From the IMG/VR virus record IMGVR_UViG_2693429733_000018: a DNA stretch of 10,025 bases. One strand, written 5' to 3'. The DNA is from a virus (lineage: Duplodnaviria > Heunggongvirae > Uroviricota > Caudoviricetes). This document shows positions 1,272 through 6,630 of this stretch, piece after piece (the stretch's first letter is position 1; every line of letters begins with the position of its first letter). Under the pieces are notes generated by a model. It saw nothing but the letters and a program-made list of their open reading frames with translations, did not search any database and had not been told where the DNA came from. The position numbers and the translations under genes are program-made.

Positions 1272-1489
1272 ATACATATCTGGATTATCACCTGTTACGG
1301 TAAAAAGTGATTGCTTACTGTTTTTGTGAATGGCATTGCAGCAGCCGGATAATGTCAGTGCTGGCTGACGGTGTGCTGGTGGCGGGTGTGGTGGTTGTTG
1401 CTTTCCCGTTGCTGAAAAAGAAAACGCCAGACTGTTAGCCGGGTATCAGTTAGCGGGAGAAATTTTTAAATACTTCACAATTCAGGCGG

Positions 1490-1526
1490 TTGACTGTTGT
1501 CTGGTTTGCGGGGAGTTTGTTAAAAG
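1490..1526 (+). promoter_or_regulatory. Promoter of module A (TTGACT / TTGTCT -35-like elements; extended -10 TGtTAAAAG)
   Basis: Extended -10 motif TG-n-TAAAAG at 1518-1526 with TTGTCT 18 bp upstream. Heads a roughly 170-nt leader that ends at a strong terminator, which is pR'/qut/tR'-like (6S-like RNA) architecture. Confidence 0.45.
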
Positions 1527-1664
1527 AAACTGGCATGGTGAATCCCCCTGTGCGGAGGGGCAATCAGCGAGTAGGTATATGGGATAATCGCGGATTCAGG
1601 TGCTGGTACTGAATTCACCGGGAGGCACCCGGCACCATGCAATGGCACATAGCGCCACTCTCCA

Positions 1665-1700
1665 GCCCCTCTCCGGAGGGGCTGTTTATATTGATTTTGT
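1665..1700 (+). terminator. Intrinsic terminator of module A (GCCCCTC-TCCG-GAGGGGC followed by TGTTTATATTGATTTTGT)
   Basis: Perfect 7-bp GC stem with tetraloop and a T-rich tail. Confidence 0.7.
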
Positions 1701-2040
1701 CAGATGTGAAGAGGTGGTAAAAGTTGCCTGTCCGGAGTGTGGCGGAAAGGGTGAGGTTTCCACCGCCTGTAAGGATTGCCGTGGGCGTGGTGTCGCCATT
1801 CATCGTGAAGAGTCGGTAAAACGTGGTATGCCTGTTATCAGAGACTGCCAGCGTTGTGGTGGTCGTGGCTATGAAAGACTACCATCAACGGAGGCATTTA
1901 ATGCTATATGCGAGGTGACAAACCAGATAACACGCGCGTCATGGGAAAAAACAGTTAAGAAATTTTATGATGCGCTGGTGACCCGGTTTGATATTGAAGA
2001 AGCATGGGCTGAGCGGCAGTTAAAAAAGGTAACTAGGTAA
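1701..2040 (+). pseudogene. Duplicated 3' fragment of Q (last ~111 codons) fused directly to the module A terminator; lacks its own 5' end
   Basis: Positions 1706-2141 are near-identical to 97-520 (one substitution plus an 8-bp indel that creates the stop after VTR). The ORF-track reading frame upstream of 1706 runs through the module RNA and is chimeric. Confidence 0.7.
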
Positions 2041-2141
2041 CAAGGTTGATTTTTCCGGAATCTGTGGTAAATTCGTCATAACGATGGGCGTTTTATGCCT
2101 GACGTTAGAAGAGTTTCTACAACCCGCCGCCGAGCGGGTTT
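1706..2141 (+). repeat. Direct repeat of 97-520 (Q 3' end plus downstream terminator)
   Basis: Near-identical over about 430 bp; differences are T/C at 344 versus 1966, an 8-bp tandem duplication at 2038-2046 and A/G at 463 versus 2094. Confidence 0.85.
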
Positions 2142-2145
2142 TTTA
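2123..2145 (+). terminator. Intrinsic terminator-like hairpin (duplicate of 494-516)
   Basis: Identical hairpin CCCGC-CGCCGA-GCGGG plus T run. Confidence 0.55.
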
Positions 2146-2264
2146 TGACTGAAATCGCGTCAGTACAGTAAACGCGCTGGTGGCGGTGAATACCTGTCTT
2201 TCAGCTTGCTGGCTTTTTCGACAAGAGTTATTGGTGTGTCACGTTAACCGGAAAAGGAAAAGAC

Positions 2265-2462
2265 ATGCTAAAACAGCAGGATATGACAGAAACCGCCAGA
2301 GTGGTGTTTAATGAATTAAGCGTTACCGAACCGGCGACAGTCGGGGAGATAGCGCAGAATACTTACCTTTCACGCGAACGCTGCCAGTTAATACTGACCC
2401 AGCTGGTTATGGCGGGTCTGGCAGACTATCAGTTCGGTTGTTACAGACGCCTTCCGCAGTGA
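2265..2462 (+). CDS. Small hypothetical protein (65 aa), possibly helix-turn-helix DNA-binding, immediately upstream of the methyltransferase
   Basis: ATG preceded by AAGGAAAAG (SD-like). The segment TVGEIAQNTYLSRERCQLILTQL looks HTH-like; this is inference only. Confidence 0.4.
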   Translation: MLKQQDMTETARVVFNELSVTEPATVGEIAQNTYLSRERCQLILTQLVMAGLADYQFGCYRRLPQ

Positions 2463-2612
2463 AGGCTTTTTTATTTGTGGTAAATGGGCGGCTGGTGGGT
2501 GTTAGGGGCACCCACCAGCCATCTGCTCATGCGTTGGGTTCACAAGCAAACCTCAGGCCCACTGCTTTGCGCAAAAGCAGAATGAGCCTATCAGAGACAG
2601 GCTTAATGATCC

Positions 2613-3671
2613 ATGCTTAATACTGTAAAAATATCCAGTTGTGAGTTAATCAACGCCGACTGCCTGGAATTTATCCGGTCGTTACCCGAAAATTCTGTTG
2701 ACCTGATAGTCACGGACCCGCCGTACTTTAAAGTGAAGCCTGAGGGCTGGGATAACCAGTGGAAGGGCGACGATGATTACCTGAAGTGGCTGGACCAGTG
2801 TCTGGCGCAGTTCTGGCGGGTGCTGAAACCTGCCGGAAGTCTTTACCTGTTCTGTGGTCATCGCCTGGCATCTGATATCGAAATCATGATGCGTGAACGC
2901 TTCAGTGTGCTGAACCATATTATCTGGGCGAAGCCGTCCGGACGCTGGAACGGATGCAACAAGGAAAGCCTGCGGGCGTATTTCCCCGCCACAGAGCGCA
3001 TTCTGTTCGCGGAACATTATCAGGGGCCGTATCGTCCGAAAGATGCCGGGTATGCGGCGAAGGGCAGTGCACTGAAACAGCATGTGATGGCCCCGCTGAT
3101 TTCTTACTTTCGTGATGCGCGAGCTGCCCTGGGGATAACGGCAAAACAGATTGCAGATGCCACAGGAAAGAAAAACATGGTGTCGCACTGGTTCAGTGCC
3201 GGTCAGTGGCAGTTGCCGAATGAAAGCGATTATCTGAAATTACAGGCGCTGTTTGCCCGGGTGGCAGAAGAGAAGCATCGGCGTGGTGAACTGGAAAAGC
3301 TCCACCACCAGCTGGTGGATACGTATACCTCACTGAACCGGCAGTATGCGGAGCTGCTGAGTGAATATAAACATCTGCGGCGGTATTTTGGCGTGACGGT
3401 GCAGGTGCCGTATACCGATGTGTGGACGCATAAACCGGTGCAGTTCTATCCCGGGAAACATCCGTGCGAAAAACCGGCAGAAATGCTGCAGCAGATAATC
3501 AGCGCTAGCAGTCGTCCGGGTGACCTGATTGCAGATTTTTTCATGGGGTTGGGTTCGACAGTGAAAGCGGCACTGGCGCTCGGGCGTCGTGCAATTGGCG
3601 TTGAGCTGGAGACTGAACGTTTTGAGCAGACGGTTCGGGAAGTACAGGATTTAGTCAGCCAGAACGGATGA
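2613..3671 (+). CDS. DNA methyltransferase, beta-class (motif IV DPPY precedes motif I FxGxG); probably N6-adenine, N4-cytosine not excluded; no restriction partner seen
   Basis: N-terminal DLIVTDPPYF (motif IV) and C-terminal LIADFFMGLGST (AdoMet-binding motif I) read from the translation; about 100-aa insert between them. N6A versus N4C cannot be decided from sequence alone. Confidence 0.85.
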   Translation: MLNTVKISSCELINADCLEFIRSLPENSVDLIVTDPPYFKVKPEGWDNQWKGDDDYLKWLDQCLAQFWRVLKPAGSLYLFCGHRLASDIEIMMRERFSVLNHIIWAKPSGRWNGCNKESLRAYFPATERILFAEHYQGPYRPKDAGYAAKGSALKQHVMAPLISYFRDARAALGITAKQIADATGKKNMVSHWFSAGQWQLPNESDYLKLQALFARVAEEKHRRGELEKLHHQLVDTYTSLNRQYAELLSEYKHLRRYFGVTVQVPYTDVWTHKPVQFYPGKHPCEKPAEMLQQIISASSRPGDLIADFFMGLGSTVKAALALGRRAIGVELETERFEQTVREVQDLVSQNG

Positions 3672-3673
3672 TA

Positions 3674-3702
3674 TTGAAGAATTAATTACGCGTCGTTATT
3701 AT
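3674..3702 (+). promoter_or_regulatory. sigma70-like promoter upstream of tRNA cluster B (-35 TTGAAG, 17 bp, -10 TATTAT)
   Basis: Same -10 and spacing as 517-545; the -35 differs because the methyltransferase insertion junction lies there. Confidence 0.45.
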
Positions 3703-3711
3703 GCGGCTCCC

Positions 3712-3787
3712 GGCCCTTTAGCTCAGTGGTGAGAGCGAGCGACTCATAATCGCCAGGTCGCTGGTTCAAATCCAGCAAGGGCCACCA
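3712..3787 (+). tRNA. ileZ: tRNA-Ile2 (anticodon CAT), identical to 555-630
   Basis: Same sequence and cloverleaf as cluster A copy. Confidence 0.85.
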
Positions 3788-5837: not shown

Positions 5838-5872
5838 CGCTTCAATGGGAAATTGTTGTCGCCATTGTTCGA

Positions 5873-6115
5873 TTAACGCGTATTTTTCAGCGACTCCTGT
5901 GCAAAATACGCTGTTGCTTTTTTTAATATATCTCGCTCAAGGCGAGCTTCATTTAACGCCTTACGCAGTTGCAGAATTTCAGATTCCAGTTCAGCCACCG
6001 TGCGGGAACCAGGAGTACCGAGCCCTTTTCTGGCGGCGGTAACCCATTGTCCTAAAGTGCCTTCAGGAAGAGATAATCGGGAAGCGCCTTCACTGATCGA
6101 AAGTTGATTTTCAAG
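5873..6115 (-). pseudogene. IS3-family OrfA (HTH/leucine-zipper protein), N-terminally truncated at the junction with tRNA cluster C
   Basis: Translation ...ENQLSISEGASRLSL...LERDILKKATAYFAQESLKNTR; the upstream part of the ORF-track reading frame is antisense tRNA sequence. Confidence 0.7.
5918..5924 (-). other. Programmed -1 ribosomal frameshift slippery site (A7 on the coding strand) joining orfA to orfB
   Basis: T7 run on the plus strand lies inside the codons for ILKKATA, in the orfA/orfB overlap, as is typical for the IS3 family. Confidence 0.5.
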
Positions 6116-6120
6116 CTCCC

Positions 6121-6196
6121 GGCCCTTTAGCTCAGTGGTGAGAGCGAGCGACTCATAATCGCCAGGTCGCTGGTTCAAATCCAGCAAGGGCCACCA
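6121..6196 (+). tRNA. ileZ: tRNA-Ile2 (anticodon CAT), third copy
   Basis: Identical to 3712-3787; its promoter region is replaced by IS600 interior sequence. Confidence 0.85.
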
Positions 6197-6203
6197 TCAC
6201 ATA

Positions 6204-6280
6204 CCGCCATTAGCTCATCAGGAAAGAGCGCCAGCCTTCGAAGCTGGCTGCGCGGGGTTCAAGTCCCCGATGGCGGTCCA
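6204..6280 (+). tRNA. argN: tRNA-Arg (anticodon TCG), second copy
   Basis: Identical to 3795-3871. Confidence 0.8.
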
Positions 6281-6293
6281 TTATCTGCATCAT

Positions 6294-6370
6294 GCGTTGT
6301 TAGCTCAGCCGGACAGAGCAATTGCCTTCTAAGCAATCGGTCACTGGTTCGAATCCAGTACAACGCGCCA
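6294..6370 (+). tRNA. argO: tRNA-Arg (anticodon TCT), third copy
   Basis: Identical to 3885-3961. Confidence 0.85.
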
Positions 6371-6384
6371 CACTTATTTTCCCT

Positions 6385-6410
6385 GGCTCGCTTTTGCGGG
6401 CCTTTTTTTT
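6385..6410 (+). terminator. Intrinsic terminator after tRNA cluster C
   Basis: Identical to 3976-4001. Confidence 0.7.
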
Positions 6411-6432
6411 AAATGTCTCACAATTCAGACGG

Positions 6433-6469
6433 TTGACAGTTGTCTGTTTTGCGGGGAGTTTGTTAAAAG
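6433..6469 (+). promoter_or_regulatory. Promoter of module C
   Basis: Identical to 4024-4060. Confidence 0.45.
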
Positions 6470-6607
6470 AAACTGGCATGGTGAATCCCCCTGTGCGGAG
6501 GGGCAATCAGCGAGTAGGTATATGGGATAATCGCGGATTCAGGTGCTGGTACTGAATTCACCGGGAGGCACCCGGCATCATGCAATGGCACATAGCGCCA
6601 CTCTCCA

Positions 6608-6630
6608 GCCCTCTCCGGAGGGGCTTTTCT
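6608..6630 (+). terminator. Module C terminator, weakened (one C lost from the 5' arm gives a bulge; T tract reduced to TTTTCT)
   Basis: GCCCTC-TCCG-GAGGGGC then TTTTCTGTG; compare the perfect hairpin and longer T-rich tail at 4199-4234. Confidence 0.45.

Follow-up and report, generated by a model that had tools for sequence, protein, structure and literature searches.

The 10,025-nucleotide (nt) viral sequence IMGVR_UViG_2693429733_000018, referred to here as the window, carries a promoter, a structured leader and a terminator that recur as near-identical units within the late region of a lambdoid prophage. What is this unit, and why should one DNA molecule hold it several times? An initial annotation, made from the sequence alone, had offered two answers: repeated late promoters of the pR'/qut/tR' type in a mosaic prophage, or a multi-copy small RNA (sRNA). 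The second was essentially right. Sequence and structure identify the repeated unit as the STnc100 gene, which encodes a known sRNA of lambdoid prophages, and its apparent triplication is best explained as a scaffolding artefact. We consider this joint explanation highly probable; the family match, the anatomy of the unit, its genomic context, the undetermined bases (N) at the joins and the correspondence between the pieces and two prophage loci were each established directly.

Family, anatomy and context of the repeated unit

A repeat search and an alignment of the window located the 260-nt unit at 1450-1709 (copy A), 3984-4243 (copy B) and 6393-6652 (copy C). The initial count of three had missed a diverged full copy at 6884-7123 (copy D), with which the full copies number four, and a decayed fifth copy at 6675-6848, between C and D. 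In copy D, the first 88 nt of the unit recur at 6884-6971 with 82% identity, the second hairpin at 7035-7065 and the terminator at 7096-7120. Copies A and B had been described as differing only by three substitutions in the -35 region; these are found at 1486, 1495 and 1504 (A numbering), and positions 1472-1474 also differ within 1470-1700.

The window was scanned with the Rfam models, and all four full copies matched RF02076, "Gammaproteobacterial sRNA STnc100", over positions 1-206 of its 206, with scores far above the gathering threshold of 47 bits. Copy D gave the best score in the window (161 bits), followed by B (133.6), A (132.4) and C (123.6), and the alignments contain few non-canonical pairs. 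The decayed copy scored 30.1 bits (E = 0.0017), which is below the threshold, and it is not counted as a member. The consensus structure presents a closing helix, formed by GCAUGGUG with CACCAUGC, around several hairpins, followed by the terminator; the hairpins include the two that had been recognized initially, CCCCCUGUGCGGAGGGG and CCGGGAGGCACCCGG. The minimum-energy fold of copy A (-69.5 kcal/mol, z = -2.96) reproduces the closing helix, a four-way junction and the terminator, and six homologues carry compensatory changes in the central hairpin. The four full-length matches, together with the fold, argue for membership in STnc100. The repeated unit is thus already known, as a curated sRNA family.

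The terminator scan and the fold of copy A also bore out the two conserved hairpins and the intrinsic terminator described for each unit, so that every unit consists of a promoter, a structured transcript and a terminator. A consensus scan of the window returned 28 terminator-like sites against 7.2 expected, those of the STnc100 units among them; a strong one is present at each full copy, and even the decayed remnant keeps its own (6819-6842, followed by a T run, + strand).

All full copies lie on the + strand. In copy A, sequence reading and the alignment with PasD, an RNA described below, place the promoter at 1497-1526, with TTGTCT at 1497-1502, an 18-nt spacer and the extended -10 element TGtTAAAAG at 1518-1526; the predicted RNA, of about 160 nt, spans 1533-1692, with a terminator stem at 1663-1684 and a U-rich tail to 1692. 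Copy B has its promoter at 4031-4060 and its RNA at 4067-4226; copy C has them at 6440-6469 and from 6476 to about 6633, with the terminator at 6607-6625. In copy D, TTGCCT occupies 6907-6912 and TGtTAAAAA 6928-6936, and the RNA extends from 6943 to about 7120, with the terminator stem at 7093-7112.

The extended -10 element proposed initially fits the homologue: the PasD1 and PasD2 promoters read TTGACT-18-TAAAAA, and their 5' end, defined by RNA sequencing (RNA-seq), is the G of GCATGGTGAATCC, 7 nt after TAAAAA. In the same alignment the window promoters read TTGTCT-18-TGtTAAAAG in copies A-C and TTGCCT-18-TGtTAAAAA in copy D, and transcription would start at 1533 (A), 4067 (B), 6476 (C) and 6943 (D). 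A generic promoter scan of the window (9-of-12 rule) picked neither the STnc100 promoters nor those next to the Q genes, and returned a count no better than that of shuffled sequences.

The genomic context is that of STnc100. Open reading frames (ORFs) and Pfam matches place the unit among the late genes of a lambdoid prophage, ahead of those for esterase and lysis, and it has the same location in phage VT2-Sakai and in E. coli E2348/69 and AF39. The VT2-Sakai copy scores 207.7 bits and lies between stx2B and the esterase gene, a position that corresponds to that of copy D. Like known members, copies A-D share the closing helix, the CCCCC...GGGGG and CCGGGAGGCACCCGG hairpins and the terminator; they follow transfer RNA (tRNA) genes, or stx in other phages, and precede a nanS-p type esterase gene and a holin gene, and the family is present as one or two copies per lambdoid prophage and as multiple copies per genome. 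None of the differences is essential: the variable arm is about 14 nt shorter in copies A-C than in the model, with scores of 124-134 bits against 161 for D and 208 for the VT2-Sakai copy, and the host is here Shigella sonnei.

STnc100 is transcribed in related bacteria. E. coli O157:H7 EDL933 has 11 loci, transcribed without induction, one of them confirmed by Northern blot (PMC5331693). The RNA was detected by quantitative PCR (qPCR) in Shiga toxin-producing E. coli (STEC), where one copy lies 75 nt downstream of the stx2 operon (PMC12370729), and the primers of that study, CATGGTGAATCCCCCTGTGC and GCCTCCCGGTGAATTCAGTA, match copies A-C exactly. The copy of Stx2 phages overlaps the Hfq-bound sRNA EcOnc27/sRNA103, and single-nucleotide polymorphisms (SNPs) in it were picked out as predictors of haemolytic uraemic syndrome (PMC12711010). 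In the window, S. sonnei prophage remnants retain intact STnc100 genes, with promoter, body and terminator conserved.

The nearest comparison outside the family is with PasD1 and PasD2, the EcOnc13 homologues of enteropathogenic E. coli (EPEC) E2348/69, which are 172-173 nt long, Northern-confirmed and abundant in Hfq RIL-seq data (PMC8550237). A 2026 preprint of the Storz laboratory proposes that PasD and STnc100 share an ancestor (bioRxiv 10.64898/2026.05.13.724894). The E2348/69 order is DUF3927, RNA, then esterase and holin genes; the PasD genes follow a DUF3927 gene, as copy A does, and PasD2 precedes an esterase gene, as copy D does. Besides this synteny, the window copies have in common with PasD the promoter layout, the 5' end GCAUGGUGAAUCC, the first hairpin and a GGGAGGC motif, and PasD1 and PasD2 give sub-threshold matches to RF02076 (38-41 bits). 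However, the mean column identity is about 64%, and the seed region and terminator of PasD cannot be aligned with the window copies, from which the seed UGUGAG and the PasD terminator are absent. The targets are therefore expected to differ, and the window copies are, as far as their sequence tells, relatives of PasD and not PasD members. The PasD probe (PMC8550237 Table S6) was not apparent in the window on reading, no pattern search having been run for it.

Some details weigh against this assignment or its fine structure. The minimum-energy fold of copy D has the same helices, but with z = -1.06 it is no better than shuffles. RNAalifold on the six homologues gave a consensus partly unlike that of Rfam. 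PasD, from which the start site was carried over, has only about 64% of the alignment columns in common with the window copies, and the Rfam model begins 29 nt upstream of that start.

Two prophage loci and the joins in the window

The presence of the unit at 1450-1709, 3984-4243 and 6393-6652 stands as a feature of the sequence; three copies on one DNA molecule do not. An exact-protein look-up, with the same gene positions, showed that the window is the entire draft contig CXDM01000170.1 (GCA_001253895.1). That record has an "n" at 1710 and at 6114, where the window shows an "a" in both cases, and these are exactly the two junctions without homology (1709/1711 and 6113/6115); they are thus scaffold joins and not sequenced junctions. 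The N positions came to light because the junction sequences matched no fetched locus, CXDM01000170.1 included. The artefact is hidden in the window because the two placeholders appear there as ordinary bases. None of the stretches that hold copies A to D has an N in the record.

The pieces on either side of the joins belong to two prophage loci of finished S. sonnei genomes. Locus 1 has the order RusA, Q (284 amino acids, aa), two tRNA genes, DUF3927, STnc100, an IraM-like gene, a 62-aa esterase stump and IS600. Locus 2 begins with DUF968, RusA, Q (273 aa), a 65-aa ORF, a DNA methyltransferase gene and three tRNA genes, and continues with two STnc100 copies (with IS600 between them in most genomes, adjacent in strain 53G), a full esterase gene and a holin gene. 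We take CP000038.1 to be S. sonnei Ss046 and HE616528.1 to be S. sonnei 53G. In pairwise alignments, window positions 1-1709 equal locus 1 of Ss046 with one mismatch (position 89), and the identity stops at 1709; positions 1711-4168 equal locus 2 of 53G at 100% and leave that locus inside the sRNA. From 6115 onward the spacing of 53G is kept, with 326 nt from tRNA to copy C, 467 nt from C to D and 432 nt from D to the esterase gene. Copy C has the same RF02076 score and spacing in 53G, and copy D is also found in 53G and in sibling contigs.

The first join, at 1710, thus connects the end of locus 1, 17 nt past the terminator tail of copy A, to the middle of the Q gene of locus 2. The second, at 6114, leads from inside IS600 to DNA that immediately precedes the tRNA-Ile gene of locus 2. 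Between them stands copy B, which is a hybrid of the 5' part of C and the 3' part of A. It equals C at 100% over 3706-4168/6115-6577, after which the two part, and equals A at 100% over 4039-4243/1505-1709; the identity of 3706 onward with the region from 6115 begins exactly at 6115. The exact core common to A, B and C covers 130 nt (4039-4168 in B), so a short-read assembler cannot tell A from C there. Chimeric assembly is the most likely origin of copy B.

Copy A, in locus 1, and copy C, in locus 2, are real copies, and so is copy D, a diverged paralogue directly upstream of the esterase gene. The window is then read from these alignments as a scaffold of three contigs with gap-filled, duplicated ends that interleaves the two S. 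sonnei loci. Three near-identical copies within 5 kb would most likely be not biological, but the product of two single-N joins and one path switch in the 130-nt repeat, as judged from the sequence comparisons. The most parsimonious account of the true content places copy A in locus 1, and copies C and D with the remnant in locus 2. An assembly artefact of a single locus had been named initially as what would overturn the repeat; an artefact was indeed largely what we found, with two loci scaffolded together and not one locus collapsed.

Sibling draft contigs of the same accession series arrange these pieces differently, and their odd joins carry N as well (a single n at 6087 in contig L010; eleven n at 5238-5248 in contig L012). 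In L010, positions 1-4200 join the left part of locus 2 (DUF968, a RusA of 126 aa and a 75-aa Q stump) to the left part of locus 1 (an 85-aa ORF, a RusA of 124 aa and the 284-aa Q), which is another chimeric order.

The arrangement could instead be real, if inter-prophage recombination and IS600 had brought A, B, C and D onto one molecule. The late regions of prophages are mosaics, no N interrupts copy B, and real IS600-mediated rearrangements occur in S. sonnei: in a finished genome, such an event has joined the same two loci (L021, LR213449.1). This last point counts against the artefact, as does the fact that loci 1 and 2 were not seen listed under one finished genome accession. Still, we judge a real arrangement very unlikely. 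Both non-homologous junctions are N in the record, which leaves them with no sequence evidence; the same DNA is used twice at 100% (3706-4168 and 6115-6577; 4039-4243 and 1505-1709), as is typical of gap-filled contig ends; and three sibling assemblies give three orders, the odd join being N in each. Had A and C undergone a reciprocal crossover, moreover, neither would persist in pure form, yet both are present; a real arrangement would require pure A, pure C and the hybrid B to occur together. The window arrangement was found in none of 5,426 complete E. coli genomes, nor in the finished S. sonnei loci, and the methyltransferase-tRNA block followed within 10 kb by the IraM-like gene occurs in neither of the finished S. 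sonnei genomes examined.

In the rearranged sequence LR213449.1 (1-5400), the genes that usually flank IS600 in locus 1 adjoin locus 2, with a copy of IS600 in between; the two prophage regions have here undergone a real rearrangement through IS600, but its order is not that of the window.

Two simpler events were also considered and rejected. A real tandem duplication of 89-1709 does not agree with the second Q gene, which carries the SNP of locus 2 (T at 1965 against C at 344) and runs into locus 2, the join being N. Illegitimate recombination through microhomology at 1709/1710 and 6114/6115 is moot, both junctions being N.

The scaffolding explanation carries a caution, as a striking triplicated module proved to be a curated sRNA family together with a scaffolding artefact. 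In scans of draft assemblies, suspicion should fall on repeats beside single-N joins and on contig ends that are reused exactly.

Candidate late promoters beside the Q genes

The alternative that the units are late-promoter modules, at each of which Q would load and of which the RNA would be a by-product of the lambda "6S" type, draws on a real likeness. Both have a promoter, a structured leader of about 160-190 nt and a strong terminator; the 6S RNA of lambda has a similar length, and a pR'-tR' transcript can at the same time be an Hfq-binding sRNA, StxS being one example (PMC7547250). Like 6S and StxS, STnc100 would have a constitutive promoter and a short structured RNA that ends at an intrinsic terminator in the late operon, with read-through after induction.

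The position of the units, nevertheless, speaks against it. Lambda 6S and StxS start at the Q-dependent late promoter directly after Q and carry qut and pause elements, whereas STnc100 lies 1-2 kb downstream of Q, without such elements and independently of the type of Q. In the window, the Q stop codons precede copy A by 1.0 kb and copy B by 1.9 kb, with tRNA genes, ORFs and terminators in between, and directly after each Q gene stands a lambda-like pR' with TAAATT, an AAC(G/T)ATGGG pause element and a terminator. VT2-Sakai has the order Q, three tRNA genes, stx2A, stx2B, STnc100, the convergent AsxR and the esterase gene, with STnc100 more than 2 kb from Q, and its pR', the 258-nt StxS transcript and tR' were mapped beside Q (PMC7547250).

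The Q genes differ as well. Those that accompany the RNA belong to three unrelated families, PF03589 (the window and prophage PP4 of E2348/69), PF06530 (VT2-Sakai) and PF06323 (PP2 of E2348/69), and PasD1 and PasD2, nearly identical with only four differences, are each found with another of these families. Q proteins act only at their own qut sites, and Q-qut pairs are allele-specific; a module that does not depend on the type of Q is therefore not a qut unit. On inspection, the first 25 transcribed bases of STnc100 contain no good -10-like pause element, and in our reading no hexamer of GCATGGTGAATCCCCCTGTGCGGAG combines a good -10 match with the critical A2 and T6. Transcription of the homologues occurs without induction, but so does that from pR'.

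Aligned to lambda pR' (TTGACT-17-TAAATT-6-AACGATGGG, NC_001416), only the Q-proximal regions fall in register, with the TAAATT -10 element shared; the STnc100 promoter does not. We therefore regard the late-promoter reading as extremely improbable. As for a late region with repeated units, the repeats trace to the two scaffolded loci.

The regions next to the Q genes are themselves candidates for the true late promoter units. In locus 1 the putative unit spans 418-517 (+ strand), with TTGATT at 418-423, a 16-nt spacer, TGgTAAATT at 437-445, the -10-like pause element AACTATGGG at 452-460, a leader of about 65 nt and a terminator at 492-511 followed by a T run; it was identified from the sequence only. 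The candidate after the locus 2 Q gene spans 2047-2146 (+ strand), has the pause element AACGATGGG, identical to that of lambda, and a terminator at 2121-2146. The Q-proximal unit is conserved beside PF03589 Q genes in E. coli AF39 and in PP4 of E2348/69, and it would give a short RNA like StxS or 6S. The late promoter of prophages with PF03589-type Q thus appears to resemble lambda pR' down to the pause element.

A weak Trp_leader match at 412-518 was below threshold and was treated as a chance resemblance of a terminator-bearing RNA. The models of AsxR, AgvB, Esr41 and 6S gave no match in the window at E up to 1.

Proposed mode of action, tandem array and neighbouring elements

We propose that lambdoid prophages carry STnc100 in their late region as a "moron". 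Transcription would start at the G of GCAUGGUG, from a sigma-70 promoter whose -10 element is extended (TGtTAAAAG or TGtTAAAAA), and the RNA, of 160-180 nt, would fold by pairing this 5' segment with CACCAUGC into the helix that closes the multi-hairpin junction, and end at its own terminator. In the lysogen it would be made alone, independently of Q, and by analogy with EcOnc27 and PasD it may associate with Hfq and base-pair with host and prophage mRNAs. Its terminator would also close off the downstream esterase and lysis genes; after induction, the Q-modified polymerase coming from the Q-proximal pR' would read through it. For S. sonnei, the start site, the independence of Q and an Hfq-dependent action in trans are all drawn from homologues and are probable at best. 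The action in trans appears the weakest step, because STnc100 has no demonstrated function in the literature and PasD abundance barely changes in an hfq deletion (PMC8550237 table S2), so that dependence on Hfq is not strong; both facts tell against the proposal.

The same lack of a demonstrated function would suit a unit that is mainly an insulator in cis, whose terminator blocks transcription from tRNA promoters or stx into the esterase and lysis genes and whose RNA has no role in trans. Every full copy has a strong terminator and the remnant still a good one, and the unit always stands just upstream of the esterase and holin genes. On the other side, the tRNA cluster already has a terminator of its own behind it (3976-3993 and 6385-6402); a promoter of its own and a conserved multi-helix body have been kept, neither of which a bare terminator would need; and the homologues appear in Hfq interactomes with many targets. 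An exclusive role as insulator is for these reasons unlikely, and insulation is compatible with the sRNA explanation as a second role.

Beyond the sRNA assignment, the remaining interest of the window lies in the C-remnant-D array and the convergent element at 7124-7212, in a box upstream of the promoters, and in the lambda-like pR' described above. Copies C and D and the decayed remnant stand within 700 nt in locus 2, and this tandem array is real; it is also present in the finished S. sonnei 53G genome. In E. coli genomes, that of the type strain ATCC 11775 included, a stretch of about 1.4 kb holds tRNA genes, the two copies and the esterase gene, which is consistent with such an array. A recent survey of the related Pas sRNAs ascribed their multiple copies to repeated phage acquisition and not to tandem duplication. 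That the locus is a site where prophage sRNA paralogues duplicate or stack in tandem, diverge in the variable arm and gain new targets, under regulation through a CTCACAATTCAG-N4-TTGACAG box, is a tentative idea that we hold to be possible rather than probable.

The box has the form CTCACAATTCAG-N4-TTGAC(A/T)GTTG(T/C)CTG and is found at 1475-1502, 4009-4036, 6418-6445 and 6885-6912 (+ strand). It is kept in all four copies and in Stx2 phages. The perfect TTGACA within it lies 25 nt from the -10 element, too far for a normal -35 element. The box could be a regulator site or a second promoter.

Facing copy D, an sRNA-like element lies at 7124-7212 on the - strand, and the terminator scan picked up its terminator at 7152-7131. 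It occupies the position of the anti-sRNAs AsxR and AgvB of enterohaemorrhagic E. coli (EHEC) in Stx phages, where AsxR is convergent with STnc100 in VT2-Sakai. The element is an analogue in the same intergenic moron site; AsxR and AgvB are RNAs different from STnc100 and are encoded on the opposite strand. On visual comparison, the window element closely resembles an EPEC RIL-seq candidate, E2348C_1409.E2348C_1408.IGR, with the seed CUUGCG (PMC8550237 fig. S5). An OmrA-B match over 7124-7212 (25 bits) was below threshold and was set aside as a chance resemblance of a terminator-bearing RNA.

Among the neighbouring genes, the tRNA cluster of locus 2 (Ile2-type CAU, Arg-UCG and Arg-UCU) occupies 3712-3961 and again 6121-6370 (+ strand); locus 1 has a two-tRNA version at 555-807 (+ strand), from which the middle tRNA-Arg(UCG) was lost. 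IS600 is partial in the contig (5019-6113, - strand); its 272-aa product has Pfam rve/HTH_21 matches and is of the IS600 family in E. coli records. It truncates the nanS-p type esterase gene of locus 1 to a 62-aa DUF1737 stump (4834-5022, + strand), and the junction between stump and IS600 is fixed in finished S. sonnei genomes. An ORF of 117 aa without a Pfam match lies between the tRNA genes and the DUF3927 gene (918-1271, + strand). Just downstream of STnc100, in antisense, 4253-4588 (- strand) encodes a 111-aa product that is named anti-adapter IraM in E. coli records; a precomputed Pfam match places it in the PmrD family, and our own Pfam scan gave none. The CAU tRNA was called "Met" by ARAGORN and is tRNA-Ile in RefSeq annotations of related E. 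coli prophage regions.

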